A stretch of DNA of 64,000 nucleotides from Escherichia phage phAPEC8, in the sequence record NC_020079.1; one strand, 5' to 3'. The translations under genes were made by a program, and so were the position numbers. Shown here one piece after another: positions 45,340-60,778 of the stretch. The notes under the pieces were generated by a model. The model made no database searches and had not been told where the DNA came from. It saw only the letters and a list, made by a program, of their open reading frames with translations. Position 1 is the stretch's first letter, and the number at the start of each line of letters is the position of its first letter.

Positions 45340-45618
45340 TTAAAATGGTTCGTTAGTCTCCATCATATATTCTGCTTCTAGTTCTTCCATATGCTTTCTA
45401 AATTGGAAAGCAATTTCTGCTACAGTTACATTTAAATCTTTTTCAAAAACTTCTGTAGAGCCTTCATAAAAACGAATACCGTCAATTAAAAGCCCTCCGT
45501 GGTAATCCCAATCACTTTCACGAGAAAGCGGGTTAGGCTCTTCATAATAGTAATCCACCTCCACGACTAAAGCTTTCCCGTTACGAGCGGTGTATTCAAA
45601 ATCAAAAGTGTTAATCAT
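45340..45618 (-). CDS. hypothetical protein
   Basis: 92-aa ORF between the primase-helicase and glycosyltransferase genes. Confidence 0.45.
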   Translation of the reverse strand: MINTFDFEYTARNGKALVVEVDYYYEEPNPLSRESDWDYHGGLLIDGIRFYEGSTEVFEKDLNVTVAEIAFQFRKHMEELEAEYMMETNEPF

Positions 45619-46562
45619 TATAGCTCCTCAAATAAAAGTCTACGACGCTCATTCAACACATCAATGTGATAATGAGTCCTGACATACTTAGCTAATGCTA
45701 ATCCTTTCTCCATGCAAACATCGGGAGCACTTAATAAGTATTCCGTAATATCTTTCCACTCGGAAGGTGTTTCAGCAAAGAATAACAAATCTTTAAACTC
45801 TTGTGTATGATAATTCTCACGAGGAGAACAGATCAAAGGTAAACCCTTAGCACCTGCCTCAAGAATTTTAAGATTGCTTTTTGCATTATTAAACACGTTA
45901 TCAATCAATGGCGCAAGACTGATTTGATGACCATCGTAAGATTCCATGTAGTTGGCATATGGTCTTACACCTTCATAAACACAAGTTGGTGCTACATTTT
46001 CTCTGATTACAGACCATTCACGACTACTTAAAACTTCAGAATCCCTACGAAAACCACATATTGTAAGATCTTTACCAAAATCGGGCAAGATAGCCAAGTC
46101 TTGTTTATGTGTTTCACTTCCAGCCCAGACTAATGGAGTTTTGGAGTAGCGATCACGGGTCAACACAAATTGACCTTCATCGTAAGGAAGTCCATTAGGG
46201 ATTATGTGCACATTATCATTGTATTGTGAAAGTTCAACTTGCAAAGCAGGTGTCGTAGTTGTAACGAGATCGCTGTGCTCTAAAAACCATTTTAAATGTT
46301 CACGAATACCTGATTCAAAAATACCTTCTAACATGTGTCCTTTTGGAATAACTAAAGAGTCATCCAAATCCATAACCATTTTAAAGCCTAGGTTTTTAAG
46401 GGCTAAAAAGCCCTCTTTACCTTTTGTTGGCACCCCGTTAAAAACGAAAACGTTGTGTTTAGGTTGTGAAGAGAACTGCCTTGAGTAAGGCAGCACTACT
46501 CTATGGAAATCGCAGACACTATAATTGATTCCGTTACGATTGTCAAGAATTATTTGTCCCAT
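45618..46562 (-). CDS. glycosyltransferase, GT-B fold (GT4-like), paralog 2
   Basis: 314 aa; shares extended identity with ORF 46570..47520 (e.g. FNNAKSNLKILEAGAKGLPLICS vs FNNCKSNLKILEAGAKGIPIVCS); K-x-LEAGA-x-G-x-P motif typical of retaining GT-B enzymes. Confidence 0.5.
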   Translation of the reverse strand: MGQIILDNRNGINYSVCDFHRVVLPYSRQFSSQPKHNVFVFNGVPTKGKEGFLALKNLGFKMVMDLDDSLVIPKGHMLEGIFESGIREHLKWFLEHSDLVTTTTPALQVELSQYNDNVHIIPNGLPYDEGQFVLTRDRYSKTPLVWAGSETHKQDLAILPDFGKDLTICGFRRDSEVLSSREWSVIRENVAPTCVYEGVRPYANYMESYDGHQISLAPLIDNVFNNAKSNLKILEAGAKGLPLICSPRENYHTQEFKDLLFFAETPSEWKDITEYLLSAPDVCMEKGLALAKYVRTHYHIDVLNERRRLLFEEL

Positions 46563-46569
46563 ACTTCAC

Positions 46570-47520
46570 CTACAAACTTTCAATAACCTGGCGTCGCAAC
46601 TCGTTTGCATCTGCCAGATTATAATGTGTTCGAACATGTTCAGCCAAGAACAAGCCACGATCTTCCCGATAGTTTGGATTGCGAAGAAGCTTAACAATTT
46701 CGTAATGCCATTCTGCTTTATTCTCTGCGTAAGCAACAGCGCGAGCATCTACAGGGTTAAAATAAGGTAATACCTTAGAACAAACAATTGGAATACCTTT
46801 TGCTCCAGCTTCCAGGATTTTGAGATTACTTTTACAATTATTAAAATCGTTATCTACCAAAGGAGCTATAGCAATAGCATGACTTTCGTAAACACTCATG
46901 TAATTATCTAAATCTTTTACAGCGGCTTTATATTTGGCATTTGGTAAATTTCTGCGAATCTTAATCCACTCTTGTCCTGTGATGCTTTGTGATGCTTCAT
47001 ATCCCGCAATAGTAAGAAGTTCATCATCGAAAGTATTAGAGACTAGTCGTAAATCGGGTTCGTGACTAGCACCGCCAGCCCATACAACAGGGGTACCGGA
47101 TGAACGATCATTTGACAAAGTGAATTGTCCGCTATCAAAAGGAAGTGCATTTCGGATCACAACAACATTCCTATTTAAGTGGCGGATCTTATATGCCAAA
47201 TATTCCGTAGTCACAATAACCACATCAGCAAGCTTAACCATAGCTACAATAGCATGAGTGTTTGACTCGTATAGACTTGCTAAATAATGTTCTGGATTGA
47301 GTTGGTAGAAATCATCTAAATCTACAACAATCTTAACACCTTGACGTTTCAAAGATAAAACGTATTCTGCACCTTTAGAGTGGATACGGTTAAACACAAC
47401 AACATCTTTCTTAGGTTGAATATTATTGTTGTTAAAGGGCATAACAATACGATGATAGTCACAACCGCTATGAGGTTTTGCATCAATTTTTAGTTTAGAC
47501 CATTTTTTTTTATTTGACAT
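46570..47520 (-). CDS. glycosyltransferase, GT-B fold (GT4-like), paralog 1
   Basis: 316 aa; tandem paralog of ORF 45618..46562 with the same conserved blocks (CDYHR, VDLDD, TPVVWAGG, KILEAGAKG). Confidence 0.5.
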   Translation of the reverse strand: MSNKKKWSKLKIDAKPHSGCDYHRIVMPFNNNNIQPKKDVVVFNRIHSKGAEYVLSLKRQGVKIVVDLDDFYQLNPEHYLASLYESNTHAIVAMVKLADVVIVTTEYLAYKIRHLNRNVVVIRNALPFDSGQFTLSNDRSSGTPVVWAGGASHEPDLRLVSNTFDDELLTIAGYEASQSITGQEWIKIRRNLPNAKYKAAVKDLDNYMSVYESHAIAIAPLVDNDFNNCKSNLKILEAGAKGIPIVCSKVLPYFNPVDARAVAYAENKAEWHYEIVKLLRNPNYREDRGLFLAEHVRTHYNLADANELRRQVIESL

Positions 47521-48193
47521 GTGCTAGTGCCTCCTCATAGGAAATTCGGATTTTCCCATTTTTAATATCCTCTAAAGATGCTTTATATTCTTCCCAGTTA
47601 ATCCCAATAGCAGCTTCTTTCTCTTCTTTTGTCAGATTAGCAAAAGGCATAGGATTGTTTCCAAAAACATCGTCTGGGTGGATATAAGCCATGATACGAA
47701 GTGGACAAGGTGTTGCCTGAATACCATGATTCAAACCAGCAGCTTGCAAACGGTGTCCCCATTCAGCATCTTCAAAACCATAACCGTGAGTGTAAGGACG
47801 GAAATAACCCATCTTCTCAACAACGGCACGAGAATACATTGCAAATTGACACATTGCAAGTTCCCAGAGAATAACTTCTCCTTTGCTTCCAACAACTTTA
47901 TCTTTGAAATACTCCGGCATACCAAAGAAATCCCATCCTCCAGAGACAGCTTGATCTACAAAGTATGTTTCCCATCCCTCCATGACTGGGTAGCAATCGT
48001 CGTCAAAAATAAACCAATAATCATAACCTTCTTCATAAAACTGGTGCATAAGTTCATTCCTGGCATAAGCTACACCTTTACGATCTGGATCGTTGAATAC
48101 TCGAAAATCTGCACGTGGATCTGTTACAAGGTAGTCTTTAAGTGGACGGACACCTACAGTGATAACACCCACTCCGATTTTAATATTTTCCAT
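47510..48193 (-). CDS. glycosyltransferase, GT-A fold-like (DxD motif)
   Basis: 227 aa; N-terminal IGVGVITVGVRP and acidic FIFDDDCYP motif resembling the DXD nucleotide-sugar-binding motif. Confidence 0.45.
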   Translation of the reverse strand: MENIKIGVGVITVGVRPLKDYLVTDPRADFRVFNDPDRKGVAYARNELMHQFYEEGYDYWFIFDDDCYPVMEGWETYFVDQAVSGGWDFFGMPEYFKDKVVGSKGEVILWELAMCQFAMYSRAVVEKMGYFRPYTHGYGFEDAEWGHRLQAAGLNHGIQATPCPLRIMAYIHPDDVFGNNPMPFANLTKEEKEAAIGINWEEYKASLEDIKNGKIRISYEEALAHVK

Positions 48194-48201
48194 TTTCTCT
48201 C

Positions 48202-48765
48202 CTAAATAGTTTTACTGTGATCATGACAGTGTAATAAATGATGTATAGACCGTTGAGGATTTGTTTGACCTAATCTGTAAATGTGAAACAGATACATTCC
48301 CCGCATCAATCCTAACCTCTTTCCTTTTTCATGTAAAGTGCGAGAGAAAATTAAGTCGAATTGGATAGATTTTTCTTCGAAAGGAATTTCATTCCACAAT
48401 GATTTTCTAAAAAGCAAAAAGAAACCTGCCAGAGGTGTTCCGAAAGGAACTTCTTCAACATTTACTTTATGATATTCTCTTGCAATCTTAGCATATTCTA
48501 TATGGTTTAGAATATCGGGATCATCGTTAATTTGGTTAGAGAAAAGCTGATAACCACTACCTAACCTGTTACAAGTTGCACCTATTACATCAAAAGGCGG
48601 GTTTGACATAACAAGCTCTTCAAGCATAGATGGTTGATCAGGTAGGAGGAACATTGTATCGGTATCTCTTAAACACACCCAACTATCATCTGGAAGAACG
48701 GCAATGGCTTCATTGATAGCCTTGCCGATATTTCCTGTCAGATAGGGAGTAATATAATAAATCAT
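48202..48765 (-). CDS. glycosyltransferase-like protein (GT-A-like N-terminus)
   Basis: 187 aa; N-terminal IYYITPYLTGNIGKAINEAI and CLRDTDTMF (DxD-like); weaker assignment than the three upstream GT genes. Confidence 0.35.
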   Translation of the reverse strand: MIYYITPYLTGNIGKAINEAIAVLPDDSWVCLRDTDTMFLLPDQPSMLEELVMSNPPFDVIGATCNRLGSGYQLFSNQINDDPDILNHIEYAKIAREYHKVNVEEVPFGTPLAGFFLLFRKSLWNEIPFEEKSIQFDLIFSRTLHEKGKRLGLMRGMYLFHIYRLGQTNPQRSIHHLLHCHDHSKTI

Positions 48766-49466: not shown

Positions 49467-49988
49467 TTAACTCCCCTTTGGTAGATAGAAACCATGCACT
49501 TTATCTCGATAAACAAGACGCATATCACGTTCCCAGTGTGTCCTTATATTCCGTTTCTTGAAGTATAGAGCACCTTTAGTAACATCTAAAACAGACCGCA
49601 ATTCAGGAAAATGTTTCTCTAAATAAAGTAAACGCTCCGCTATTGCTTTTGCTTCCTGCCACTTATCTTTCTCTGTTACGTTAAAAGTTTTCGCATATGA
49701 GAATTGCCCTTTCTGGAACAAGACTCCTCTGACTGTGTTAGGGAAGTAGGTATCATTTCTTCTGTTGATTACCACATTCCCAACGGCATTCATTCCTTTT
49801 TTACCCAGACCGCGACCTTCTGCGTAAATTGCACAAGCTAATAGAATTTTATCATTATATTGCTTTGTACATTTGTGAACTACTTTAGCGGTTTTTACGT
49901 TTGCAGCTTCGGCTTTCGCCACAACAGGTGTAAATGTAAAAGCAGTTAAGGATAGTAACGCAACTGTTACAAAGTTTTTTATCAGCAA
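49467..49988 (-). CDS. secreted cell wall hydrolase, SleB/Hydrolase_2-like (endolysin candidate)
   Basis: 173 aa; N-terminal signal peptide (LLSLTAFTFTPVVAKAEA) and core ACAIYAEGRGLGKKGMNAVGNVVINRRN...FPNTVRGVLFQKGQFS matching the SleB-type signature; TTG start with SD AGGAGG and its own promoter. Confidence 0.55.
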   Translation of the reverse strand: MLIKNFVTVALLSLTAFTFTPVVAKAEAANVKTAKVVHKCTKQYNDKILLACAIYAEGRGLGKKGMNAVGNVVINRRNDTYFPNTVRGVLFQKGQFSYAKTFNVTEKDKWQEAKAIAERLLYLEKHFPELRSVLDVTKGALYFKKRNIRTHWERDMRLVYRDKVHGFYLPKGS

Positions 49989-50049: not shown

Positions 50050-50069
50050 GAGGGGGATTTCTCCCCCTC
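50050..50069 (-). terminator. stem-loop downstream of TerD-like gene (possible terminator, weak U-tract)
   Basis: Perfect stem GAGGGGGA/TCCCCCTC with TTTC loop; minus-strand downstream is UUGCAAUAAA. Confidence 0.3.
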
Positions 50070-50087: not shown

Positions 50088-50690
50088 TTATGGACATTCA
50101 TACCATTCTTTTTTACCACCAAAGGCCATCACCACATCGCAAATATCCAGACCAGCTTTACCTACACCATATGCTTTCAGCTTCCATTCCCCATCTTCAC
50201 GAACCAGCGAAGCCACGTGGCAGATTGTGTTGCCAGCTACTTCAGGAGCCAGGAAGTCAAAATCCAGAATTTCCACATTGCGCTCGGAGTCGAAGATTTT
50301 AAGCATACCTTCAGAAGCATGACCAAAACGTTTCAGACCTGTATCATCATCAATGGTCAGAACAAAGGCAATCTCTTGTGCATCAGGAGAGATTTTAGCC
50401 AGAGTAATATCAATCTGCTCCATGCTGCCAGTTCCATCACGAACATCGTCACCAGCGAAGGTAGAACGTTCAGGATCAAACTTGTTAGCATAGCAAACCA
50501 GATGACGTGCAGACAGCATTTCAGGATTGCCAGCGGCATTATGACGACAAACCAGTGCACTTACATCCAGATCCAGTTTAGAATCAGATTTCCAAGAGAA
50601 TTCCAGGCGCAGTTCTTTCAGAGCCGGAGCAACTTTCTTCAGGGAAATTTTTTCGCTAGAACCTTTTTTCAGGGAAATTTTATCAGTCAT
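50088..50690 (-). CDS. TerD-family protein (tellurium-resistance TerD/TerZ/TerE-like)
   Basis: 200 aa; alignable block-by-block with E. coli TerD as recalled: ISLKKG..ISLKK, LDLDVSAL, AGDDVRDGTGS, IAFVLTIDD, FG...G, GEWKLKAYGVGKAGL. Confidence 0.8.
   Translation of the reverse strand: MTDKISLKKGSSEKISLKKVAPALKELRLEFSWKSDSKLDLDVSALVCRHNAAGNPEMLSARHLVCYANKFDPERSTFAGDDVRDGTGSMEQIDITLAKISPDAQEIAFVLTIDDDTGLKRFGHASEGMLKIFDSERNVEILDFDFLAPEVAGNTICHVASLVREDGEWKLKAYGVGKAGLDICDVVMAFGGKKEWYECP
50638..50681 (-). repeat. 14-bp direct repeat (TTCAGGGAAATTTT x2, 30-bp period) at the 5' end of the TerD-like gene
   Basis: Two identical copies at 50638-50651 and 50668-50681 encode the duplicated KISLKK peptide at the TerD N-terminus; a similar sequence opens the vWA gene. 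Confidence 0.5.
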
Positions 50691-50705
50691 CTTTTGTCTC
50701 CTCTA

Positions 50706-50975
50706 TTATTTAAGTGTAATACCAGTTACAGTCAATTCTACTTCCAAAAGCTTAGATGTGTTTTGGATTGATACTAATTGTGCATGATGGTTTAGTTCTA
50801 CAGCAGAATAATCATTTTCCCCATCATCTACTTTTAAATAAACAATGATTTCACTAAGGTCTAAACCATTTTCGTCAAATGCATTTTCATAGACGAAAGT
50901 ATCTCCTACATCCAAATCTTTAATGGTAAGGCATCGTTTATTTACTTTTTGCTCATCAATTTCGAAGTTTAACAC
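50706..50975 (-). CDS. small protein, paralog B of a duplicated family preceding Ter-type genes
   Basis: 89 aa; GTG start with SD AGGAGG overlapping the upstream gene end; paralogous to ORF 51997..52275 (shared DLDVG.TF...Y, ...VE(V/L)(D/E)L(E/T)VT(N/G)ITLK). Confidence 0.45.
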   Translation of the reverse strand: MLNFEIDEQKVNKRCLTIKDLDVGDTFVYENAFDENGLDLSEIIVYLKVDDGENDYSAVELNHHAQLVSIQNTSKLLEVELTVTGITLK

Positions 50976-51204
50976 TTCTTCCTCCTAATGTTATCTCCGG
51001 TTTGTATATACGAAGAATTATAGCATTTTCATTTTCTTTGTCAACCCATTCTTCATAATCGGGCCATACATGAATCTCTACTCTACTTACAATATCTTCC
51101 ATCCGCACAATCCCAATGAAATACTCTTTGAGACTGCGCATAATGAAAGCTTCTCTCTCGCGCCAATAATTTTCTACGACTTGAGAGGCAAGCTCGTCGA
51201 TCAT
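50956..51204 (-). CDS. hypothetical small protein
   Basis: 82-aa ORF between the vWA and paralog B genes; start overlaps the vWA stop. Confidence 0.4.
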   Translation of the reverse strand: MIDELASQVVENYWREREAFIMRSLKEYFIGIVRMEDIVSRVEIHVWPDYEEWVDKENENAIILRIYKPEITLGGRSVKLRN

Positions 51205-51995
51205 TTTTTAGCACCTACTTTAACAACCCACTCTCCGAACTCTTCAGATAAGAGTTTGTCATAAAGCTCTGAATCTGTCAAGTCTAAATCTTTAATGCCA
51301 ATGAAACCAACATTATCATAAGCATTTGCCAGTTCTTTCAGGAAGCCAAACTTCTCATTACCAACGCCAACCATGAACCAATAAATAGGTTTATTCTTAT
51401 TCTCTTCGATAAGACGACGAACAGCACTAGGATCACCATTCTCACCATCCGTTTGGAAGAATACAACACCAGGGGTAACGTCAGCACCTGGTTCAGATAC
51501 AGCTACAACCTTTTCACGCTCTACAGATACTGTTTCAGTTTTACCAAGCAGACGATTAAAGAAGCCTTTCTTTGGAGCCTCCTCTTGTACCACTTGTTTA
51601 GTGGTAATATATTTGGTAACAGTGCCAAAATACTCGTCGTAGATATCTGCCATTACAGGGGCGTAGTTTGTTCCACCTCCGATACGAACATTACGCATAC
51701 ATTTACCAACATAATCATCGTAAACGTCTGCTGTTGCTGGGGTAAGCTCTTGAGAACTCGTATTAAAGGCCCACATATCAATTTGTTCATTATCGTCGAA
51801 CAGCATACCAAAAGGAAGCAGTTTACCTACAAAATCACTCACTACCCCACTAGCATATAGACCATGCATACTACCAGAAATATCTAGAGCACATGCTACA
51901 CGAAGAACAATCTTACCTTCATTCAGGTTCTTATTCTTTTTCAGAGAGAAAGCAAGGTTTTCTTGACGTTTTTTCAGGCTGATTTTCTCGGACAT
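51201..51995 (-). CDS. von Willebrand factor A domain protein (TerY-like context) with TerD-like N-terminal peptide
   Basis: 264 aa; MIDAS motif DISGSM, GGTNYAP and TDGENGD; N-terminus MSEKISLKK...FSLKK echoes the TerD N-terminal repeat. Confidence 0.65.
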   Translation of the reverse strand: MSEKISLKKRQENLAFSLKKNKNLNEGKIVLRVACALDISGSMHGLYASGVVSDFVGKLLPFGMLFDDNEQIDMWAFNTSSQELTPATADVYDDYVGKCMRNVRIGGGTNYAPVMADIYDEYFGTVTKYITTKQVVQEEAPKKGFFNRLLGKTETVSVEREKVVAVSEPGADVTPGVVFFQTDGENGDPSAVRRLIEENKNKPIYWFMVGVGNEKFGFLKELANAYDNVGFIGIKDLDLTDSELYDKLLSEEFGEWVVKVGAKK

Positions 51996-51996
51996 A

Positions 51997-52275
51997 TTAT
52001 TTCTCCTTCTTAAGTGTAATGTTGGTAACTTCTAAATCTACTTCCACCATCTTTGTATCTGGTGGGATGCAATGAGTATAGCCTCGTTGTGCTAGTGATC
52101 CATTAATACAGATCGCACTGTTTGTGGAATTTTTAATGAACACCAAGTTACGGTAGGTATCCAACCCTGCGTCTTCATAGGCATCATAATACATGAATGT
52201 GGCCCCTACGTCAAGATCTTCGAAAGCAATAGGTAAATCCTGACTTTTTTCTTCTTGAATATTGAATCTAAACAC
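51997..52275 (-). CDS. small protein, paralog A of a duplicated family preceding Ter-type genes
   Basis: Track ORF 51997..52341 trimmed to a GTG with SD GAGGAGG that overlaps the upstream gene end, the same arrangement as paralog B. Confidence 0.4.
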   Translation of the reverse strand: MFRFNIQEEKSQDLPIAFEDLDVGATFMYYDAYEDAGLDTYRNLVFIKNSTNSAICINGSLAQRGYTHCIPPDTKMVEVDLEVTNITLKKEK

Positions 52276-52831
52276 GCATACCTCCTCTACCAATTTTGAA
52301 GCCCAAATCGTAAGCTTCCTTAGTGATCTTTTGTAACTCACTTATAGGAAGTGTTACAAGAGGATCATCTTCTTCAATTTCCATCTTGTCATCTTCTGTT
52401 TCAATGAGAGTATTATGCACTTTGTGATAAGGGTTGTCAACACGTTTAAACTTATTCTTTTCTGTGCTGAAAAAACAATCTGGATCTTCTTCACCATCAC
52501 CCCAACCTTGGTTAGGATCTCCGTCAGATTGTTCTGTAGGGATTTCACCTGTAAAGTACTCTTCCAGCACCATAGCGATACCGTCCCTTGGATTTGAGGA
52601 ATGCATCAAATCACAAACCTTACTCCAATCCATAGCCCATTCAAATCGTTCACGAACACCATTTTCATCCTCCTTTCCAGAGAAAACACAACCATAACTA
52701 TCATAGTTGCCATACATCTCTTCAATAACAACACCGTCCTTCAAAAGAAAGAGATAACAAGGTGATCCGTCGAAAGAAGTAGAAAGGGCAGCTTTGCCCG
52801 ATTCTTTGCACAAAAAGCTAAAACAACCCAT
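52268..52831 (-). CDS. hypothetical acidic protein
   Basis: 187 aa; Asp/Glu-rich central region (EQSDGDPNQGWGDGEEDPDCFF, ETEDDKMEIEEDDP). Confidence 0.45.
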   Translation of the reverse strand: MGCFSFLCKESGKAALSTSFDGSPCYLFLLKDGVVIEEMYGNYDSYGCVFSGKEDENGVRERFEWAMDWSKVCDLMHSSNPRDGIAMVLEEYFTGEIPTEQSDGDPNQGWGDGEEDPDCFFSTEKNKFKRVDNPYHKVHNTLIETEDDKMEIEEDDPLVTLPISELQKITKEAYDLGFKIGRGGMRV

Positions 52832-53229
52832 TACAAACCCTCCTTCAGATTATCAAGAGCTACAGTGGTTTCACAAAATTCTCCATAAGCTTTATGATGT
52901 TCCAGAAAAGCTTCGGGTCCACCCCAGTCATTATCTTGTGTATTCCAGCCATCAATAAAAGCATCTTCAATGATTGTGATCAGTTCCTGTCGAGTCAACG
53001 TAATGGTATCAGGTTTCTGCGTAGTTTCCACACGGAACCCTGGTTCTTCATAAAAACCTTTAGTTACAATGGATTCTAACTCTTCTGCATCACAGAGGAA
53101 GTAGCCACAAAGATAACACCCACCGTCATCATCTTTCATTACTTCATAAACTTCACCACTTGCTAACTTGATGAAAAGAGTAGGGTCTGTTACTGTAAGT
53201 TTTAAAAGAATACCTGTTGGATTATACAT
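52831..53229 (-). CDS. hypothetical protein
   Basis: 132-aa ORF; ATG overlaps the 3' end of the small acidic ORF upstream. Confidence 0.45.
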   Translation of the reverse strand: MYNPTGILLKLTVTDPTLFIKLASGEVYEVMKDDDGGCYLCGYFLCDAEELESIVTKGFYEEPGFRVETTQKPDTITLTRQELITIIEDAFIDGWNTQDNDWGGPEAFLEHHKAYGEFCETTVALDNLKEGL

Positions 53230-53395
53230 CTTCTTCCTCCTCTAAGATATGGAACCCGTAATTACAATAATCCTGAAAGGTTTCGTGTGCAAGATCTTCT
53301 ATATCTTCTTGAGACATATCATCTTCAATTTCGATATCTACAACCTCATTGCATCCACACCAAGCCGTTTCAATATTCACTCGTAATATTTTCAT
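53222..53395 (-). CDS. small highly acidic protein (57 aa, below ORF-track cutoff)
   Basis: Hand-translated ORF MKILRVNIETAWCGCNEVVDIEIEDDMSQEDIEDLAHETFQDYCNYGFHILEEEEDV; preceded by GGAGGAGGAGGAG; its ATG shares a nucleotide with the upstream stop (TAATG). Confidence 0.4.
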   Translation of the reverse strand: MKILRVNIETAWCGCNEVVDIEIEDDMSQEDIEDLAHETFQDYCNYGFHILEEEEDV

Positions 53396-53595
53396 TACTC
53401 CTCCTCCTCCTCATTGAAGTCAATATCTGCAAGGAGTTCGAATTTACGGAAGTTACGACAACCTTCATAAATATAACAATCACGACAAACTGCTAGAACA
53501 CTTGGGGGATATATGCCTCCCATCGGTGCGAATCGTTTTTCGTCATCATAACGGACACCAATGTCTTCATCAATTATATAGATACGGATTCTCAT
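53395..53595 (-). CDS. small acidic Cys-containing protein
   Basis: 66 aa ending in NEEEEE; start overlaps the upstream gene stop. Confidence 0.4.
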   Translation of the reverse strand: MRIRIYIIDEDIGVRYDDEKRFAPMGGIYPPSVLAVCRDCYIYEGCRNFRKFELLADIDFNEEEEE

Positions 53596-54704
53596 TTACC
53601 AAGCCCTCGTTTCACAGCAGCTACCATCCCGTCTTCCAGAGATTGAACTTCATTAATATAATCAACACGAGCAGCACGGGCTTCCGTATTGATGCGGTTA
53701 GTTTCTTCCAACATCTTAACCAAGTTTTCCTGATCGTGACGCAGAGTTTCAATATCCAACACTTGACGGTTAGCCAGTGCTGCTGCTTCGATCTGATTCT
53801 GTGTGGCAAGATCGCTACCCAGTTTAATTGCCAGGTTAAATTCATCAAGAACGTTATTCTGCGTCTCTGCTGCTTTCATTTGACGTAAGCTCTCGATATA
53901 CATTGAGAAGTTAGCAGAGTAAGCAGGAATAACATTATTTACTATGTTACGCGCAGATCGCATTAAGCTTGCAGAAACTTTTTGCATACCTTGTACACGC
54001 GGTCCCATTTGGACACACAGTAGGCGCAATGCTTTTAAATCTGCAATACGAATCTCCAGAAGATCCAAAGTATCTCGGATCACTTGTCGCTGTTCTACTG
54101 CATCTTCTGGAAGAGCAGCCAAAGCTTGTTCTTCTTTTTCATAGGTTGCTGTTAGAAGCTGCATATCTCGGTTCAAACTTGCAGCATATTGTCCAATAGC
54201 TTGATGTAGCTTTTCAAGATATACCAAGGAATCTTCTTCTTTGCGAATATCCATTTGAAGGTTCTTTACCAACTCTTCAATACGGTTATTAACATTATCA
54301 AACTCCCCAAACAGATCTTCTTTCATACCCATAACTTTTTTAATGAGTTTAGTAATACCCTTGCTTTGTTTAATAGAGTTTGGATCAAGTTGTTTTGCCT
54401 GTTTAATCAAAGCTGTGAGTCGTTCACTCATCTGATCGCCTTGATTACTACGTTGATGTTTTAATACCTCGGCATTCAAGGAACGCAAGGTTGTTCCTGC
54501 CTCTGCCCCAATCTCTTCAATCTCTTGTCGGGTCATAGAAGGCAAAACTGGAACTTCTTGCGGTGCCGCTGGTGCATAAACAGGACTGGCATCTAACACG
54601 CTTGGAGCGAATACAGATTTACTTGCATCGGTTGTTGCAGCAAATACGCTCATTTCAGGCTTCTTCTGACCACCAGTAGCTGCTTTTAAAAATGGACTTG
54701 TCAT
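53592..54704 (-). CDS. coiled-coil protein, TelA-like (toxic anion resistance family) candidate
   Basis: 370 aa, predominantly helical/coiled-coil; TelA assignment rests on size, composition and proximity to TerD/TerC/vWA genes, not on a verified signature. Confidence 0.35.
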   Translation of the reverse strand: MTSPFLKAATGGQKKPEMSVFAATTDASKSVFAPSVLDASPVYAPAAPQEVPVLPSMTRQEIEEIGAEAGTTLRSLNAEVLKHQRSNQGDQMSERLTALIKQAKQLDPNSIKQSKGITKLIKKVMGMKEDLFGEFDNVNNRIEELVKNLQMDIRKEEDSLVYLEKLHQAIGQYAASLNRDMQLLTATYEKEEQALAALPEDAVEQRQVIRDTLDLLEIRIADLKALRLLCVQMGPRVQGMQKVSASLMRSARNIVNNVIPAYSANFSMYIESLRQMKAAETQNNVLDEFNLAIKLGSDLATQNQIEAAALANRQVLDIETLRHDQENLVKMLEETNRINTEARAARVDYINEVQSLEDGMVAAVKRGLGK

Positions 54705-55291
54705 TCTTCATTCTCCTCTTCTGCATCTCTTATATATGGTGAAACACCGTACTCTTTAGCTACTTTAACCCAATCGTCCCATTTATACAACCATAATTTT
54801 CCTTCGGTCCCTTCTTTATCTGATTTCAACCACATATTAGGTTGCTTACCTGGGTACATGCGATTAGGTTTACGATTATAACCTCTAACACATCTTGTCG
54901 CAAACCCATCTACCAGAACAAGAACATATTTATATTCGTGGTTCAACGGCTCTTTGGAAGTGGCTTTAGGATTAGCCCCTAATTCTGCTGCCAGTTTTTG
55001 CCAATGAGCACCGTGCCTACTAAACTTACCCATACAACCATCAATAGCATGAGCAATTTCGTGCTTCATTGTGTCCACGATCATATCTCTTGTGGAGTTC
55101 TTATGCAAGTGCCAATTTACAACAACAATTTTATCTCGGTAGTTGCACCAACCGAAAGAGTTATTCACTTTGTTTCTAACACAAGCTTTATATCCTGCTT
55201 CACGTAACATGTTGTAGTAAACAGGAAAATCTTCTTTTATTTCCTGCATCACTTCCCACCACAAGAGTTGCAAGTCTCTCTCGGTATGCAT
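54701..55291 (-). CDS. SprT-like zinc metalloprotease domain protein
   Basis: 196 aa; HEIAHAIDG (HExxH) followed 8 residues later by HGAHW, the SprT-family pair of motifs. Confidence 0.6.
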   Translation of the reverse strand: MHTERDLQLLWWEVMQEIKEDFPVYYNMLREAGYKACVRNKVNNSFGWCNYRDKIVVVNWHLHKNSTRDMIVDTMKHEIAHAIDGCMGKFSRHGAHWQKLAAELGANPKATSKEPLNHEYKYVLVLVDGFATRCVRGYNRKPNRMYPGKQPNMWLKSDKEGTEGKLWLYKWDDWVKVAKEYGVSPYIRDAEEENEE

Positions 55292-55294
55292 AAC

Positions 55295-55888
55295 TTACAC
55301 CTTAAAAGCGAAATGCGTGGTCGTGGCTTCAAAATCAGGGCCAGATAAACTTGCACTGAAATCTGAAATATTTGTAATTAAAAAGCTTTTATGCATACCT
55401 AACACAGCCACGCTTTCAATATCTTCTACTAACATTTCAATCATGTTAGAAACATGGCTGAACGTATAGTTTTGTTTTTTGATGGTGTAGAAAGAAAGAC
55501 TCCCACCTGCTGTATAAGATACCTCTTCAAAATCTTTAATCGTATATTGTGTACCATCAGTAAAGAAAATGGTAGCTTTATTAGTAGCACGTTTCTTGTT
55601 TTTTGGTCCTTTTTTACGTTTACTGCGAGTAGGCAAACCGTTTGGGAACACCGTAGCTACAAATTCTTCAGGGGAAACCTCCTTACCGAAATCATAATCG
55701 TAAGAAACAGCGTCTATACACTCGTCGTCTTCATTTTTAAAATAATGAAAATAGGGCCAATTTGAGAGATTATCGAGCATCTTATGCGCATCCACAACAG
55801 AGAACGTATCCCTCAAAGCACGTGTGATTTGCAAAGCATTAGGCAAACTTTTAACACCTGTAATGGAAGTACGAATAGAAATTGTCAT
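55295..55888 (-). CDS. hypothetical protein
   Basis: 197-aa ORF with a basic central patch (RSKRKKGPKNKKRATNK). Confidence 0.45.
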   Translation of the reverse strand: MTISIRTSITGVKSLPNALQITRALRDTFSVVDAHKMLDNLSNWPYFHYFKNEDDECIDAVSYDYDFGKEVSPEEFVATVFPNGLPTRSKRKKGPKNKKRATNKATIFFTDGTQYTIKDFEEVSYTAGGSLSFYTIKKQNYTFSHVSNMIEMLVEDIESVAVLGMHKSFLITNISDFSASLSGPDFEATTTHFAFKV

Positions 55889-55902
55889 TGTTTTTCTCCT
55901 TA

Positions 55903-56355
55903 TTAACGTCGCTTGCTACGAGATGAACTCTTTTTACTTAAAGGGCTATTGTAAGATTTACGAGTTGTATAGCTACTATTTGTTTTAAAAGTTTGTCTCG
56001 GCTTTTCATAAGTTTTTATCTCTTGTTTAGGCTTACCATAAAAATTAGTTTTCGGTTTAGGTGTATTATAATGCTTATTAATAATCGTTCTGTTATCGTT
56101 ATAATCCCCACTGCTACGATTACTACCACCACTCATCATATGCCCTAACAACATACCTGTAGCAAACTCACCAACACCGCTACTACTAGAACCGCCACCA
56201 TTGTTGATAATAGTTGTATCTCCGTCAGATCCTTGTTGAGCGTATTGTTGAGGAGGTTGTTGGTATTGTGCAGGATTTGTTTCATCCTCGCAAGCTGTTA
56301 AAAAGATACAACCAATTAAAATCAGGGCTAGTTTTTTCATATTTGCTTTCCTCAT
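55903..56355 (-). CDS. lipoprotein (signal peptide + lipobox LTAC), Gly/Ser/Gln-rich
   Basis: Track ORF 55903..56415 trimmed to MRKANMKKLALILIGCIFLTAC; classic n-h-c signal region with lipobox Cys; alternative start at 56340. Confidence 0.5.
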   Translation of the reverse strand: MRKANMKKLALILIGCIFLTACEDETNPAQYQQPPQQYAQQGSDGDTTIINNGGGSSSSGVGEFATGMLLGHMMSGGSNRSSGDYNDNRTIINKHYNTPKPKTNFYGKPKQEIKTYEKPRQTFKTNSSYTTRKSYNSPLSKKSSSRSKRR

Positions 56356-56527
56356 TTTGACTATTAATACATCTGTGTTTGAAATCTCCAGAGAAGCAAT
56401 AAAGTTGCTCTCCATCTCGGTATAAACTCACTTTACTGCCGTTGATTACGCTTGTCAATACAAAAATTACAACAAACAACCCTATTGCAAAACAAATATT
56501 TTCAAACACAACCAACAAGTATTTCAT
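56282..56527 (-). CDS. small membrane protein overlapping the lipoprotein gene start
   Basis: 81-aa ORF with N-terminal TM helix (LLVVFENICFAIGLFVVIFVL); its 3' part overlaps the lipoprotein gene in another frame, so true extent is uncertain. Confidence 0.3.
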   Translation of the reverse strand: MKYLLVVFENICFAIGLFVVIFVLTSVINGSKVSLYRDGEQLYCFSGDFKHRCINSQNEESKYEKTSPDFNWLYLFNSLRG

Positions 56528-56874
56528 TTTAAAAATACCTCATCATCAGTCTCATTATCCCAGAAGAACAAATCCCAACCATTCGGATCATTCCATTTGG
56601 CTGCTGGAGAAGTCCATATTTGTTCGATATCAATATTCAAAACTTCACCGTTTCGTTTTGAAACAGCTTTAGTTAATTCCCAACGAGATACAGGCTCTAC
56701 TTCCCCTGAACCACTCCCACAACAAGCTACCACGTTAGGAGGCAAATTAATTGGATCTTTGGTCACGATCATAACGCTTACCCCAGGGTAAACTTTTGAA
56801 AGATAATCTAAAACGTAATCCACATCACCAGATAAATCCCAAACAAGTTCTTGAATTTCATCAAAATTATTCAT
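56524..56874 (-). CDS. hypothetical protein
   Basis: 116-aa acidic ORF immediately downstream of the TerC-like gene. Confidence 0.45.
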   Translation of the reverse strand: MNNFDEIQELVWDLSGDVDYVLDYLSKVYPGVSVMIVTKDPINLPPNVVACCGSGSGEVEPVSRWELTKAVSKRNGEVLNIDIEQIWTSPAAKWNDPNGWDLFFWDNETDDEVFLK

Positions 56875-56916
56875 AAGTCTCTCCTATAAAATAGCCTCCC
56901 GAAGGAGGCTCATCTA

Positions 56917-57891
56917 TTAAACAGCAGCTTCTTCTTTTTCAGGGAAGATAAAGCTTGCAATAACACCAAGAGCTAATGTGCCTAGAACAATCATCAGACT
57001 TACGTTAGGGGAAATATCATGCGGGAGGAATGACCACTTGGCATGAAGTGTTTCACCGAACGGGTGATACATAAGTTTAGCACCGACAAATACCAGAACC
57101 ACAGCAACAGCTTTCTCTAAGTGAACCAGATATTTCACAGCCACACTTAACACAAAGAAAAGTGCACGTAAACCAAGAACAGCCATCAGCATTGCAGAAT
57201 AAACTAGCAGAGGTTCTTGTGTCACACCGATCACAGCCGGAACTGAATCAAAAGAGAAGACAATATCTGTAAGCTCAATAACAAACACACAAAGAAGAGC
57301 AGGAGTTGCATATTTAATACCATTCTTAATGGTGATGAACTTTTCACCATCTAGTGCATTGTGCACAGGCAGAACTTTACCTACTAAACGAACAGCCCAA
57401 TGCTTAGAGTAATCAATATCCTCTTCTTCGTCACCACCTTTGATGATAGCCACGGCAGACCAAGCTACAATCAAACCGAACAACACTTGGACCGACCAAT
57501 GAAGGTTAAACAAAGCGGTCCCTGCTGCAACAAAAATACCTCGGAAGACAATGGCTCCTGCAATCCCCCAAAGTAAAATCTTATGTTGGAGATGTGTGCT
57601 CTTAATTCCAAAGCTTGCAAAAATTGCCATGAACACCATCAAGTTATCTACAGAAAGACTCTTTTCCAACACATAGCCACTTAGGAAAAGCGCGGCAAAC
57701 TCTTTACCATGTTCTACCCAAATGAATGCGTAATATCCTAAAGCTAAAGCAATCCAAAAAACAGACCAAAGCAAAGCAGATTTAATTCCAATTTCTTTAT
57801 TCTCTTTATGACCAAAGAAATCGATACCAATAGACAATGCTAAAATACCAACCAAAACAACTACATCAATAATGGGGAAACCAAGTTGCAT
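56917..57891 (-). CDS. TerC-family integral membrane protein
   Basis: 324 aa, multi-pass hydrophobic; contains EKSLSVDNLMVF and ELTDIVFSFDSVPAVIG, matching the two conserved TerC blocks (SxDN and ExxDxxFxxDSxPA). Confidence 0.6.
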   Translation of the reverse strand: MQLGFPIIDVVVLVGILALSIGIDFFGHKENKEIGIKSALLWSVFWIALALGYYAFIWVEHGKEFAALFLSGYVLEKSLSVDNLMVFMAIFASFGIKSTHLQHKILLWGIAGAIVFRGIFVAAGTALFNLHWSVQVLFGLIVAWSAVAIIKGGDEEEDIDYSKHWAVRLVGKVLPVHNALDGEKFITIKNGIKYATPALLCVFVIELTDIVFSFDSVPAVIGVTQEPLLVYSAMLMAVLGLRALFFVLSVAVKYLVHLEKAVAVVLVFVGAKLMYHPFGETLHAKWSFLPHDISPNVSLMIVLGTLALGVIASFIFPEKEEAAV

Positions 57892-57910: not shown

Positions 57911-57929
57911 GCGGGGAACCACTCCCCGC
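57911..57929 (-). promoter_or_regulatory. 5'-UTR stem-loop upstream of the TerC-like gene
   Basis: Stem GCGGGGA/TCCCCGC with 5-nt loop, 20 nt upstream of the ATG at 57891 and downstream of a promoter-like element; no U-tract. Confidence 0.3.
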
Positions 57930-57941
57930 CTCATGTGATAC

Positions 57942-57969
57942 ATCTTACTCTATTCTAAAACTTTGTCAA
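57942..57969 (-). promoter_or_regulatory. possible sigma70-like promoter (TTGACA-N16-TAAGAT) upstream of the TerC-like gene
   Basis: Consensus -35 TTGACA (57964-57969) with a weak -10 TAAGAT (57942-57947). Confidence 0.3.
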
Positions 57970-57972
57970 CAC

Positions 57973-58194
57973 TTATTTTGAAGAACTTGAGGAAAAGATC
58001 CCACGTAGTACAGCCATGATAAATGCCACACACACCACAGTCCAGAAGGTGACAGGAACAGTGATATCTGTGTGACCCATCATTTCAACAACGTAGTTAT
58101 AAGCCAGCAGCAGAAGCCATGCTGGAATCATACTAATCAGAAAAGCAATAACAAACACAATAATCACTGCAAGAATACCTGCTAAAACGCCCAT
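57973..58194 (-). CDS. small hydrophobic membrane protein (3 predicted TM segments)
   Basis: 73 aa, almost entirely hydrophobic (ILAVIIVFVIAFLISMI, WLLLLAYNYVV, VTFWTVVCVAFIMAVL). Confidence 0.45.
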   Translation of the reverse strand: MGVLAGILAVIIVFVIAFLISMIPAWLLLLAYNYVVEMMGHTDITVPVTFWTVVCVAFIMAVLRGIFSSSSSK

Positions 58195-58207: not shown

Positions 58208-58681
58208 TTAAAGTTTATAAATAGTCACATCGTGACCTGTTTTTACTAAAGTTTCTTCAATCATCACTTGGATGATAGCCCAATTACCTCCAGCATGTCC
58301 AGCGCCAATCATAGGTAAGCCGATCTTACATTTTTGGTCACGGAGAAGCAAATCGTTAGCCATAGCTATTAGTGCATCGTAAAGTGCATCATAGTCCAAC
58401 TGACGACCTTTAGCATTGTATCCGTAACGGTATTGCCCGTATAGATTATATACCAAAGGGTCTGATTGTTCGTCTGGCACTCCTAAACTAAAACAACCTA
58501 GTTTACTTTGATCACCAGCCATTGTGTCTAAGTCTGCTGCATATGCGTAAGGAAATGCTCGTTTGATTTGTGGGGCAATACCTGCCCCCATATTACACAT
58601 ACAGTTGCAACAATGAGCAATAACAGTTACTTCACCTGCTTTAGCGGCATCAATAAGATTACCTGTTTTCATTTTAAGCAT
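58208..58681 (-). CDS. macro domain protein, TARG1/DarG-like (ADP-ribose-processing hydrolase)
   Basis: Track ORF 58208..58786 trimmed to the ATG with SD AAGGAG just after the upstream stop; motifs VIAHCCNCMCNMGAGIA and GLPMIGAGHAGGNW...VTIYKL parallel human TARG1 (AHCISEDCRMGAGIA, MPRIGCGLDRLQW...ITVYTL, from memory). Confidence 0.65.
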   Translation of the reverse strand: MLKMKTGNLIDAAKAGEVTVIAHCCNCMCNMGAGIAPQIKRAFPYAYAADLDTMAGDQSKLGCFSLGVPDEQSDPLVYNLYGQYRYGYNAKGRQLDYDALYDALIAMANDLLLRDQKCKIGLPMIGAGHAGGNWAIIQVMIEETLVKTGHDVTIYKL

Positions 58682-58694
58682 TTTTAGCTCCTTA

Positions 58695-59522
58695 TTACAG
58701 AATGTGTTGTTTTGTGTAACGATCCAAGAATTCAAAGTTTTCAGCATACTTTGAAATTCGGTTGTAACCTTCTCCCAAGCATCCAAAGAAAAGTTGCTCT
58801 ACATAGTAATGTGGCAATTGGCTAAGAATGATTTTGAAGTCTTCATGATTTTGGCCCATAAGATACTTAATAGGACGAACAAGACACTGTGCATCACGTT
58901 CTTCATTAATCATTTTAACAAACGCTTCCGGTGTATTAATGTAGTTAAAATTCAGTTTAGCTTCGGTATCTGCTTGATTACCTTCATATTTTGCAAAATA
59001 CAGGAAGTAAACATCATTTTTAACTTGATTTTCATTAAGGATCTCAATCAGTTTGTCTTCATGCGTTCCAGTGATATTTACATCATCAATGAATACAAGC
59101 TTCTTATCACCCCAGAATTCTTTGTTACAGTAGAATGTATCCCCATCAATAAGTTTCTTACGACTAGCTTTATCCAAGAAACCATAATCGTTGATATAGC
59201 TAACTTTACGATGAATAATGTCCAGTTCTGCTGAACGACCTTGATCATATTGTGATTGCAACATATTAAAGTAATTAATAAAATGATCTGTCATCATTGT
59301 TGCAGCATTATGCACATGGTTGTAAGGAGAAGGAATGATAACAAATTGTTCCCCAATATGTTTCATTGCCACTTGAGCAAAAAACTGAAGTGCCAATTCT
59401 TTACCCATACGACGCGCGGCTTGGTTACTACCAAATTTCAATTTTGAATAATCTTGGATATCAAAAGTAGCAGTTTCCAGGTCATCAAATTTATTTGCAA
59501 AAATTTGAGTTTGATTACGCAT
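58695..59522 (-). CDS. type I phosphoribosyltransferase-fold protein (PRPP-binding loop)
   Basis: 275 aa; KKLVFIDDVNITGTHEDK matches the PRPP-binding motif (hydrophobic-DD-x-x-TG-x-T) of type I PRTases and PRPP synthetase homologues. Confidence 0.5.
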   Translation of the reverse strand: MRNQTQIFANKFDDLETATFDIQDYSKLKFGSNQAARRMGKELALQFFAQVAMKHIGEQFVIIPSPYNHVHNAATMMTDHFINYFNMLQSQYDQGRSAELDIIHRKVSYINDYGFLDKASRKKLIDGDTFYCNKEFWGDKKLVFIDDVNITGTHEDKLIEILNENQVKNDVYFLYFAKYEGNQADTEAKLNFNYINTPEAFVKMINEERDAQCLVRPIKYLMGQNHEDFKIILSQLPHYYVEQLFFGCLGEGYNRISKYAENFEFLDRYTKQHIL

Positions 59523-60171
59523 TTACAATTTCTCCTCTTTTAAGTTTCTCTAGTAAGTCGTTAGGGTTCTTAATATGACAGAAGTTAAATCCTAAGTCAA
59601 CACATTTTCCATCATATTCTTCACTATCGCCTACGTGCAATACTTCGTGCCCTAACAGAGGGATCGGAGAATACGTGAGCGTGCGAGCAAAGAATCGCGG
59701 ATCTGGTTTACAAAGTAAAGCTTCATCCGAGAAATGGGTGAACTCAAAACAATTCCAACTATCAAACTTACAAGCACGACGCAGGATATCCCCTGATATA
59801 AAGTTGGTATTGCTCTTAATACTCAAATCATAACGTCCCGAAAGATACAGCAAGTACATCGGCAGATCCACGGCTACGTGTGGTGGAAACTTAAGGAACC
59901 ACTGTTCACACTCGAAACGAAGCTTTGCAGACTTCCAAGGTGTTATCCCAAGTTCAGAACCAAGTCTTTCCCAGGCGTATGCTGCACACTCGGCTTTGCC
60001 TTGAAGTGCTGCATTATCCAGTTCCTTTTTGATCTTCTTATAAGCTGCTCTTGCTTCCACTTCCGTAATATCTCCATATTTTGCGATAGTCCAGGCTCGC
60101 ATGTCTGCGTAATTGGAGTTTGCTGTGATCAGTGTGTTCCATACATCAAAAGAGATATGTTTAATAGTCAT
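59515..60171 (-). CDS. HAD-superfamily hydrolase-like protein (putative phosphatase)
   Basis: 218 aa; N-terminal ISFDVWNTLI (motif I-like, Dx(W)xT) and C-terminal LHVGDSEEYD (motif IV GDxxxD); second Asp of motif I is replaced, so assignment is tentative. Confidence 0.4.
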   Translation of the reverse strand: MTIKHISFDVWNTLITANSNYADMRAWTIAKYGDITEVEARAAYKKIKKELDNAALQGKAECAAYAWERLGSELGITPWKSAKLRFECEQWFLKFPPHVAVDLPMYLLYLSGRYDLSIKSNTNFISGDILRRACKFDSWNCFEFTHFSDEALLCKPDPRFFARTLTYSPIPLLGHEVLHVGDSEEYDGKCVDLGFNFCHIKNPNDLLEKLKRGEIVNA

Positions 60172-60172
60172 A

Positions 60173-60778
60173 TTAAGCCCACCATGCGTCTAAGTTAAGA
60201 TTACTGTCCACTACCACTTGTTCTATGTGGTAGCCTTTTATCTGTATCCCACTGTTCAAGAGCATATCATACGCTTCATTGAAACGCAACTTATCTTCTG
60301 CGGAATATAAGCGAGCATTATAAAATCGGTAATCAATTTCTTCAGCATTAGAAGAAATACGGAAGAAGTTTGTTTCTACTTCGGGATCACTTGCTGAAGT
60401 CTTAATGTGAACTTCTCCGTAATTTTCTTTACTTAGATCCATGAAAAGAACACAGGCAACATGTTTAAACATTCGTTCCAGTTTGTAACGAACAACATTG
60501 AAACCTGCATTCTCAAGTTTTTCTACACACTGCAACATTAAAGTAGTGTCGAGATCGCTTTGATACTTTGTTAACATACGATCACGTTGAGACTTTGTAT
60601 CCCGATGTAAATCAATTGTTGTGCATTTGGCACCAATAATCTTAGCTGCTTTCATCAACTCTTCAGAACTAACGTTAGATAAAGTAAGATGAAAGTGGGC
60701 TTTCCACACTTTTTTAGCAGGGACACCAAAAGATTTATCCCCACTATTCGGCATGTTGACTACTACACTATGTTGCAT
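60173..60778 (-). CDS. hypothetical protein (one HxTx motif, possible 2H-phosphoesterase relative)
   Basis: 201 aa; contains HFHLTL but a clean second HxT/Sx motif is missing. Confidence 0.4.
   Translation of the reverse strand: MQHSVVVNMPNSGDKSFGVPAKKVWKAHFHLTLSNVSSEELMKAAKIIGAKCTTIDLHRDTKSQRDRMLTKYQSDLDTTLMLQCVEKLENAGFNVVRYKLERMFKHVACVLFMDLSKENYGEVHIKTSASDPEVETNFFRISSNAEEIDYRFYNARLYSAEDKLRFNEAYDMLLNSGIQIKGYHIEQVVVDSNLNLDAWWA

Follow-up and report, generated by a model that had tools for sequence, protein, structure and literature searches.

A virus-encoded Ter-type gene block in Escherichia phage phAPEC8, conserved across the Stephanstirmvirinae

In a stretch of 64,000 nucleotides of Escherichia phage phAPEC8 (record NC_020079.1; this whole stretch is called the window below), it was found that a block of minus-strand genes related to bacterial ter genes is a virus-encoded Ter-type system. 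The system is conserved across the Stephanstirmvirinae and consists of two arms. The envelope arm is made up of TerC, TelA, a stand-alone TerF-type vWA protein with a MIDAS motif, and a divergent TerD. The small-molecule arm is an obligatory gene pair for a HAD-superfamily hydrolase and a phosphoribosyltransferase (PRTase) of the PRTase_3 family, and the genes for a macro-domain protein and a protein of 201 amino acids (aa) are local accessories to this arm. The genes are as follows.

50088–50690, minus strand: TerD-family protein, 200 aa, with a divergent acidic loop (Pfam TerD)
51201–51995, minus strand: stand-alone TerF-type vWA protein, 264 aa, with an intact MIDAS motif (Pfam vWA-TerF-like)
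53592–54704, minus strand: TelA-family protein, 370 aa (Pfam TelA)
56917–57891, minus strand: TerC membrane protein, 324 aa, with nine hydrophobic segments (Pfam TerC)
58208–58681, minus strand: macro-domain protein of the TARG1/DarG type, 157 aa from the annotated ATG (Pfam Macro, 1.3e-4)
58695–59522, minus strand: PRTase_3, a ComF-like phosphoribosyltransferase with the phosphoribosyl pyrophosphate (PRPP) loop DDVNITGT at residue 146 (Pfam PF15610)
59515–60171, minus strand: HAD-superfamily hydrolase, overlapping the PRTase start by 8 nucleotides (HAD motifs, PHROG)
60173–60778, minus strand: 201-aa protein of a phage family with invariant HxHxT and ExHxK, an accessory gene directly upstream of the HAD-PRTase pair

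Composition and extent of the Ter block

According to the definition of Anantharaman, Iyer, and Aravind (2012), as given in PMC7824862, a Ter-type system has a TerD/TerB sensor, TerC, TelA and/or a TerF-vWA protein, and a PRTase plus HAD pair. In phAPEC8, all of these but TerB lie within 10 kb. A sequence-only reading of this DNA had proposed a phage-owned Ter-type module of TerD, vWA, TelA, and TerC genes ending at 57891. The four open reading frames (ORFs) were indeed found at its coordinates, co-oriented and all on the minus strand, and the proposal is upheld by the profile tests of family identity and by the locus comparison. The proposed end was too short; the unit reaches at least to 60171, with the HAD gene, and probably to 60778. 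The Pfam check that had been suggested placed TerD (PF02342), TerC (PF03741), and TelA (PF05816) all well above the curated cut-offs, at scores that chance could not explain.

That the block is phage-borne, as had been assumed, was confirmed by the surrounding DNA. The 11 kb around the Ter block are 98.9% identical to Escherichia phage vB_Ec-G1, and dozens of Phapecoctavirus genomes (Stephanstirmvirinae) have 96–99% identity to the same region. As judged from an annotated near-identical genome, the plus strand at 1–36 kb of the window is a structural module with terminase, portal, capsid, and tail genes and tail fibres. The minus strand at 36–64 kb is a replication and nucleotide-metabolism arm with SSB, DNA polymerase I, a methyltransferase, a primase/helicase, four glycosyltransferases, a SleB-type endolysin, the Ter region, and NrdG/NrdD. 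Thus oriented, the Ter block runs in the same direction as the primase/helicase, DNA polymerase, and NrdDG genes. Its GC content (0.39–0.40) equals that of the rest of the phage.

The TerD protein matches PF02342 over nearly the whole profile (positions 3–177 of 187; E 3.2e-28, 98.9 bits against a cut-off of 25.3), so that the TerD alignment made earlier by eye stands. Its residues 5–183 align to Klebsiella TerD (2KXT, E 1.5e-15), and 3IBZ also aligns. More than 60 phage records contain the identical TerD (100%), and the protein is 81% identical to phi92 gp172 and about 30% to plasmid TerD/TerE; several phage TerDs carry the annotation "general stress protein 16U / YceD". The protein keeps DLD (residue 40) and GDD (residue 80). 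In the alignment, the loop GDN-RTGEGDGDDE of Klebsiella TerD (2KXT) corresponds to GDD-VRDGT--GSM-E in the phage protein. Most other phage TerDs keep the acidic loop GDNxTGxGxGDDE, in contrast to the Stephanstirmvirinae with their GDD-VRDGT--GSM-E. The acidic loop of TerD reportedly binds Ca2+, as is said in the paper on 2KXT. Since three Asp residues are lost and two residues are deleted in the phage loop, binding of Ca2+ or another metal, and with it the metal-sensing step, may be altered relative to other TerDs.

The vWA protein matches the family vWA-TerF-like (PF10138, E 2.1e-37, 129.7 bits, cut-off 29.4); its score against the generic VWA family PF00092 is 17.9 bits, below the cut-off. 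It is 28% identical to residues 182–408 of plasmid TerF, the C-terminal half, and the PADLOC TerY-P models do not match it. The name "TerY-like" given to it before was therefore a mislabel, and the protein is of the TerF type. Neither the kinase nor the PP2C domain of the TerY-P triad was seen among the ORFs with Pfam matches at 49–61 kb. The MIDAS motif was correctly called intact, with D38-x-S-x-S42 (DISGS), T109 in GGTN (at 107), and D183 in TDG (at 182). The N-terminal peptide KISLKK, which had been likened to TerD, is present, but it corresponds to the linker between the TerD and vWA domains of TerF (ISLEKK...VSLAKK) and is no remnant of TerD. Thus, the peptide is part of the vWA-TerF-like family itself.

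TelA had been regarded as the weakest link of the four. It is a strong call instead, with a match over positions 13–327 of the 332 in PF05816 (E 3.2e-33, 115.7 bits, cut-off 30) and a match to PHROG 5890 "tellurite resistance" (1.5e-139). A sequence search of the PDB found no solved relative of this protein.

TerC matches PF03741 (E 3e-40, 138 bits) and the NCBIfam model TIGR03718, the TerC/Alx family metal homeostasis membrane protein (319 bits, cut-off 246). Both signature blocks and the multi-pass topology that had been read from the sequence were borne out: EKSLSVDN begins at E76 and ELTDIVFSFDS at E206, and there are nine hydrophobic segments. TerC shares 48% identity with its counterpart in the ter operon of an Enterobacter plasmid and only 33% with Alx of E. 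coli K-12. Thus, it is a ter-type TerC, and the label "alx-like" is imprecise. The same identities, together with the phage-like GC content, rule out that the phage terC is a captured host alx gene.

In the small-molecule arm, PRTase_3 matches PF15610 with E 1.3e-41 (143 bits, cut-off 28.7). Its PRPP loop is intact, and the loop motif FIDDVNITGTHE is invariant in an alignment of 18 sequences. Homologues of the PRTase occur in 155 phage records, and the identity is 65% in phi92-like phages; a profile search of the PDB gave no match. The HAD protein matches PHROG 14393 (3e-117), and motifs I–IV of the HAD superfamily (tentatively subfamily IA) are conserved: D9 (FDVWNT), S120/T122 (S120-N-T-N), K155, and D182/D187. 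The D+2 position is Trp, and the motif FDVWNTL is likewise found in PDB 2om6. Matches of the HAD protein to Pfam and to TIGR02252/02254 are weak, with whole-protein scores below the curated cut-offs.

The macro protein matches PHROG 335 (1e-54) and the PADLOC DarG model (2.7e-10). Its relatives in the structure database are PDB 5e3b (1.9e-12), DarG (5m31), and OARD1, and it is nearest to the ADP-ribosyl hydrolases SCO6735, DarG, and human TARG1/OARD1. The ORF list starts this gene at a TTG at 58786, overlapping the PRTase gene, whereas the deposited genomes use the ATG at 58681. By its similarity, the macro gene could be an independent counter-defence gene against DarT (ADP-ribosylation) rather than a component of the Ter system. 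For the 201-aa protein, a word-based search gave phage-like relatives only, and an exhaustive profile search gave 253 representative clusters; the family is mostly phage-borne. Several family members have N-terminal NUDIX domains fused to them and one has HD_4, and the contexts are phage-like. PADLOC models named "AbiEi" match the protein at 5e-13, with no match to a Pfam AbiEi family. Its AlphaFold model has a predicted local distance difference test (pLDDT) score of 82 and no informative fold match in the PDB. The protein is probably a nucleotide-directed enzyme or binding domain. Its gene is absent from the phi92-like loci.

Linkage across phages and comparison with known Ter systems

Is the association of the two arms found in other phages? 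Eighteen viral loci encoding PRTase_3 relatives and one NCBI contig (19 loci in total) were compared, and they were scanned with phage, plasmid, and metagenomic homologues. In all 19 loci, the HAD gene stands immediately before PRTase_3. At least one Ter gene (TerD, TerC, vWA, TelA, or TerB) lies within 10 kb of the HAD-PRTase_3 pair in 13 of the 19. In several unrelated lineages (such as L014/L018, L019, L021, and L022), TelA, vWA, TerC, HAD, PRTase, and TerD occur together with shuffled orders; for example, the order in L014/L018 is TelA-vWA-...-TerC-HAD-PRTase-TerD. The recurrence of the set in unrelated lineages with differing order speaks for a functional unit rather than a chance neighbourhood.

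In the Stephanstirmvirinae, the order is conserved, being (orf201)-HAD-PRTase-Macro-orf73-TerC-(orf116)-orf170-orf197-(SprT)-TelA, continuing after TelA as orf132-(orf187)-orf114-vWA-(orf82, orf89)-TerD, where brackets mark the variable genes. Distant homologues are found in Xanthomonas XaC1, Rhizobium RHph, Caulobacter CcrColossus/CcrPW, and Brevundimonas jumbo phages. The records "Campylobacter phage" B15, A110a, and A145, "Acinetobacter phage vB_AbaM_ABPW7", "Klebsiella phage ZCKP1", and "Pseudomonas phage PsgM04F" are 78–99% identical in the Ter region, and some of their host labels may be unreliable.

The Ter cluster is already known and is no new kind of system: it is annotated in more than 100 phage genomes and has been discussed in print. 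The names TerD family, vWA-TerF-like, TelA/toxic anion resistance, SprT-like, TerC, macro, phosphoribosyltransferase, and HAD are already given in GenBank. The "alx-like ter cluster" of phi92 was noted in 2024, traced to 2012, and stated to be of unknown function (PMC11162368). A terC, terF-vWA, terD, and telA cluster was described for phiKp34 in 2021 (PMC8386662). In the same year, Iyer, Anantharaman, Krishnan, Burroughs, and Aravind reported Ter systems with PRTase and HAD in jumbo phages, mentioned "certain other related smaller tailed phages", and proposed superinfection exclusion (PMC7824862). What is added here is incremental, namely the obligatory HAD-PRTase_3 pairing, the assignment of TerC against Alx, the degenerate TerD loop, the transcription-unit structure, and the observation on the 201-aa family.

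The phAPEC8/phi92-like clusters in GenBank are essentially the same DNA, with no difference of substance. TerD, TerC, TerF-vWA, and TelA also make up the Ter sets of Acinetobacter ME3, the Caulobacter jumbo phages, and phiKp34, in some cases joined by PRTase and HAD. The present phage is, in contrast, a 150-kb non-jumbo E. coli myovirus, and its proteins have 25–37% identity to the jumbo-phage versions. In CcrColossus, the PRTase is about 27 kb away from TerD, whereas here all genes lie within 10 kb.

The ter operon of plasmids and O157 (IncHI2 R478, OI-43/48; locus L008 on an Enterobacter plasmid) is likewise accompanied by a PRTase and a HAD-like gene. In L008, TerZ-A-B-C-D-E-F is found with a divergent ATP-grasp/PRTase/HAD-like/StiP/HpcH module. 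The phage block differs from this operon in several respects. It has one TerD instead of the four or five paralogues of the classical terZABCDEF operon, its vWA protein is without the TerD domain at the N terminus of TerF, and it has TelA, which the classical operon lacks. Nothing of the classical terZABCDE(F) set was found in the phage block beyond homologues of TerC, TerD/E, and TerF (C-terminal half), and the gene order differs. The phage PRTase_3 and HAD gave no BLASTP match to the plasmid PRTase and HAD-like genes and are therefore of different families.

The stress operon yceCDEFGH of Bacillus subtilis contains three TerD genes, TerC, YceG, and the TelA-like YceH in one transcription direction. 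It shares the combination of TerD, TerC, and TelA with the phage and is without vWA, PRTase, and HAD.

Possible roles of the Ter block

Bacterial ter operons are associated with phage inhibition and colicin resistance. The most likely role of the phage Ter block, held tentatively and at somewhat less than an even chance, is that of a self-sufficient system for membrane protection and exclusion in the infected cell. The steps follow the model of Anantharaman, Iyer, and Aravind in the form given in PMC7824862. After infection, the PRTase would join PRPP and a base-like acceptor, and the 5′-phosphate would then be cleaved off by the HAD enzyme, giving a nucleoside-like compound. TerD may serve as a sensor or adaptor, possibly in a metal-dependent manner. 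TerC, TelA, and the vWA protein would assemble into a complex at the membrane, changing ion flux and making the inner membrane more stable; in the model of PMC7824862, these three proteins at the inner membrane would keep out competing phages or xenobiotics. The infected cell could thus stay energised and resist DNA injection by superinfecting phages, pore-forming colicins, and premature lysis until the phage's own lysis programme. One speculative reason for stabilising the membrane is the SleB-type endolysin: if it were exported through Sec, membrane damage that came too soon could set off early lysis.

In favour of this role, none of the motifs for catalysis or binding is disrupted (MIDAS, the PRPP loop, HAD motifs I–IV, and the TerC repeats). 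Deletion of terC in Klebsiella results in larger plaques and lower resistance to Zn, Mn, and Te (PMC12054061). Does the phage act on a host Ter system, or could its block work without any host Ter genes? According to GenBank records, many of these phages were isolated or propagated on E. coli K-12 MG1655. The terZABCDEF genes sit in O-island 43/48 and are absent from K-12 (PMC8565820), and terC-terD was found in 1011 of the 5426 complete E. coli genomes. Because the phages grow on K-12, which has no ter genes, and terC-terD is present in so few genomes, the phage Ter system must be autonomous. For the same reasons, manipulation of a host Ter-dependent response, which the sequence-only reading had offered as one purpose, is less likely as the main role.

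Several points weigh against a membrane-protection and exclusion system. Ter genes are missing within 10 kb of the HAD-PRTase_3 pair in six of the 19 loci, and because of this, the small-molecule arm may act also on its own. In the comparison with the plasmid locus, TerB, TerZ/A/E, ATP-grasp, HpcH, and StiP of the classical operon were found to be absent from the phage block, and the acidic loop of TerD has three Asp replaced and a gap of two residues. The PADLOC defence models did not match TerD, vWA, TelA, TerC, PRTase, or HAD, and a literature search found no experiment on any phage-encoded Ter gene. The presumed timing of expression is deduced from genome position only.

Metal homeostasis would be a different explanation. 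TerC might be an exporter of Mn2+/Zn2+ (or Ca2+) or a metalation factor, and TerD and the MIDAS vWA protein might bind divalent cations, tuning metals for phage metalloenzymes such as the neighbouring ribonucleotide reductases. The genes nrdD/nrdG and another ribonucleotide reductase gene do lie just upstream of the Ter block in the same transcriptional direction. It also fits that TerC passes the TerC/Alx metal homeostasis model of NCBIfam, that E. coli Alx is annotated as a Mn2+ exporter, and that Klebsiella terC contributes to Zn and Mn resistance (PMC12054061). However, the closer relationship of TerC to the ter-operon protein than to the Mn exporter Alx (48% versus 33%) and the degenerate acidic loop of TerD speak against it, and the tight linkage to TelA, vWA, and HAD-PRTase_3 across unrelated phages is left unexplained. 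No Rfam family reached its gathering score in the whole window, whether the yybP-ykoY Mn2+ leader or any other riboswitch or structured RNA. The leader of terC is only about 50 nucleotides long with a simple hairpin; a Mn2+ riboswitch is typical of alx/ykoY and is not needed for a ter-operon TerC. On balance, metal homeostasis seems unlikely to be what the block is for.

Also improbable is a role in counter-defence. The PRTase, HAD, macro, and 201-aa proteins might degrade, sequester, or imitate the nucleotide signals of host immunity or undo ADP-ribosylation, and the Ter proteins might be decoys or inhibitors of host Ter or envelope-stress responses. The resemblance of the macro protein to DarG and TARG1-type ADP-ribosyl hydrolases, the fusion of relatives of the 201-aa protein to NUDIX and HD_4 nucleotide hydrolases, and an Acb3 anti-CBASS gene near one related locus are consistent with such a role. 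Yet no linkage of the macro and 201-aa genes to Ter genes was seen outside the Stephanstirmvirinae, which means that both may be independent neighbours. In most hosts, K-12 among them, there is no Ter system to counter, and the phage proteins keep intact catalytic and binding motifs, unlike decoys. It is very improbable that the block is no functional unit at all but an accidental neighbourhood of independently acquired accessory genes (morons). Such an origin would suit the own promoter and terminator of terC, as in a moron cassette, and the interspersion of about a dozen unrelated small ORFs, several of which vary between relatives. It is largely refuted by the occurrence of the same six families within 10 kb in several unrelated phage lineages with differing orders, and the same families co-occur in bacterial ter loci.

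A more specific version of the membrane-protection role can be imagined, in which TerD, TerF-vWA, TelA, TerC, HAD, and PRTase_3 form a minimal, self-sufficient six-gene Ter machine working in the ter-less K-12. The HAD-PRTase_3 pair would make a nucleoside-like messenger only during infection, and this messenger would switch on the TerC/TelA/vWA membrane complex. I consider this version quite unlikely as it stands. If it were true, a tractable coliphage would give access to the biochemistry of Ter, a puzzle that dates from the 1990s, and to a novel signalling molecule made by a phage. The ter operon is widespread in pathogens (O157 and Klebsiella), and a compact phage version functioning in K-12 could serve as a clean model. 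The cluster may also matter for phage therapy, in which Phapecoctavirus members are frequent candidates, through an influence on superinfection, lysis timing, or metal tolerance.

Transcription signals and neighbouring genes

The other features in and around the Ter block are listed below.

50050–50069, minus strand: terminator-like hairpin 3′ of terD, GAGGGGGA-GAAA-TCCCCCTC; phage ASO2A has an annotated terminator at this position
50706–50975, minus strand: 89-aa ORF upstream of terD, a paralogue of the ORF at 51997–52341, found only in Phapecoctavirus-type loci
50956–51204, minus strand: 82-aa ORF holding a consensus promoter (ORF list)
51017–51044, minus strand: perfect sigma-70 consensus promoter inside the 82-aa ORF, TTGACA-16-TATAAT, with TG before the second hexamer
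51997–52341, minus strand: ORF directly upstream of the vWA gene (92 aa, 51997–52275, in other annotations), conserved in phi92-like loci
52268–53595, minus strand: four ORFs of 187, 132, 57, and 66 aa without Pfam matches
54701–55291, minus strand: SprT-like zinc metalloprotease, accessory (Pfam SprT-like, 4.2e-9; HEIAH at residue 77)
55295–56527, minus strand: 197-aa ORF, lipoprotein-like ORF (55903–56415), and 81-aa ORF with one transmembrane segment (ORF list, motif scan)
56524–56874, minus strand: 116-aa ORF, variable in the locus comparison
56893–56910, minus strand: intrinsic terminator directly 3′ of terC, AGCCTCCTTCGGGAGGCT followed by a T-rich tail; annotated in ASO2A
57911–57929, minus strand: hairpin in the 5′ untranslated region of terC, read from the sequence
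57942–57969, minus strand: sigma-70-like terC promoter, read from the sequence; a promoter is annotated likewise in ASO2A
57973–58194, minus strand: 73-aa protein with two transmembrane segments, always adjoining terC in the Stephanstirmvirinae

Three transcription units are predicted, namely nrdD to orf73, terC by itself, and orf116 to terD. The promoter at 51017–51044 is predicted to drive the 89-aa ORF and terD. In BLASTP, the 89-aa ORF is 34% identical to the ORF at 51997–52341 (E 4e-14). The two form a paralogous pair of small ORFs specific to the Stephanstirmvirinae, with the ORF at 51997–52341 preceding the vWA gene and the 89-aa ORF preceding terD. Among the four ORFs between vWA and TelA, the 132-aa ORF is kept in all five Stephanstirmvirinae loci, and the 187-aa ORF is variable.

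The stop codon of the SprT-like gene overlaps with the start codon of telA. The gene is found in Phapecoctavirus and is absent from the phi92-like loci L009 and L013. The 197-aa ORF and the lipoprotein-like ORF of 170 aa are conserved across the Stephanstirmvirinae loci. The latter (55903–56415, minus strand) has a lipoprotein-type signal MKKLALILIGCIFLTAC with the lipobox LTAC, followed by a low-complexity tail rich in Gly/Ser and in Lys. It is conserved near terC, and its 5′ end is overlapped by the 81-aa ORF with one transmembrane segment.

Directly downstream of terD, past the terminator and a promoter-like site, lies the gene for the SleB-type endolysin (49467–49988, minus strand). It has a TTG start codon and encodes an N-terminal hydrophobic, signal-like segment MLIKNFVTVALLSLTAFTFTPVVAKAEA, which suggests that the endolysin is secreted or signal-anchored. 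The four glycosyltransferase genes are consecutive at 45618–48765 on the minus strand, between the primase/helicase and the endolysin genes. Their products might modify the host surface polysaccharide or the phage DNA.

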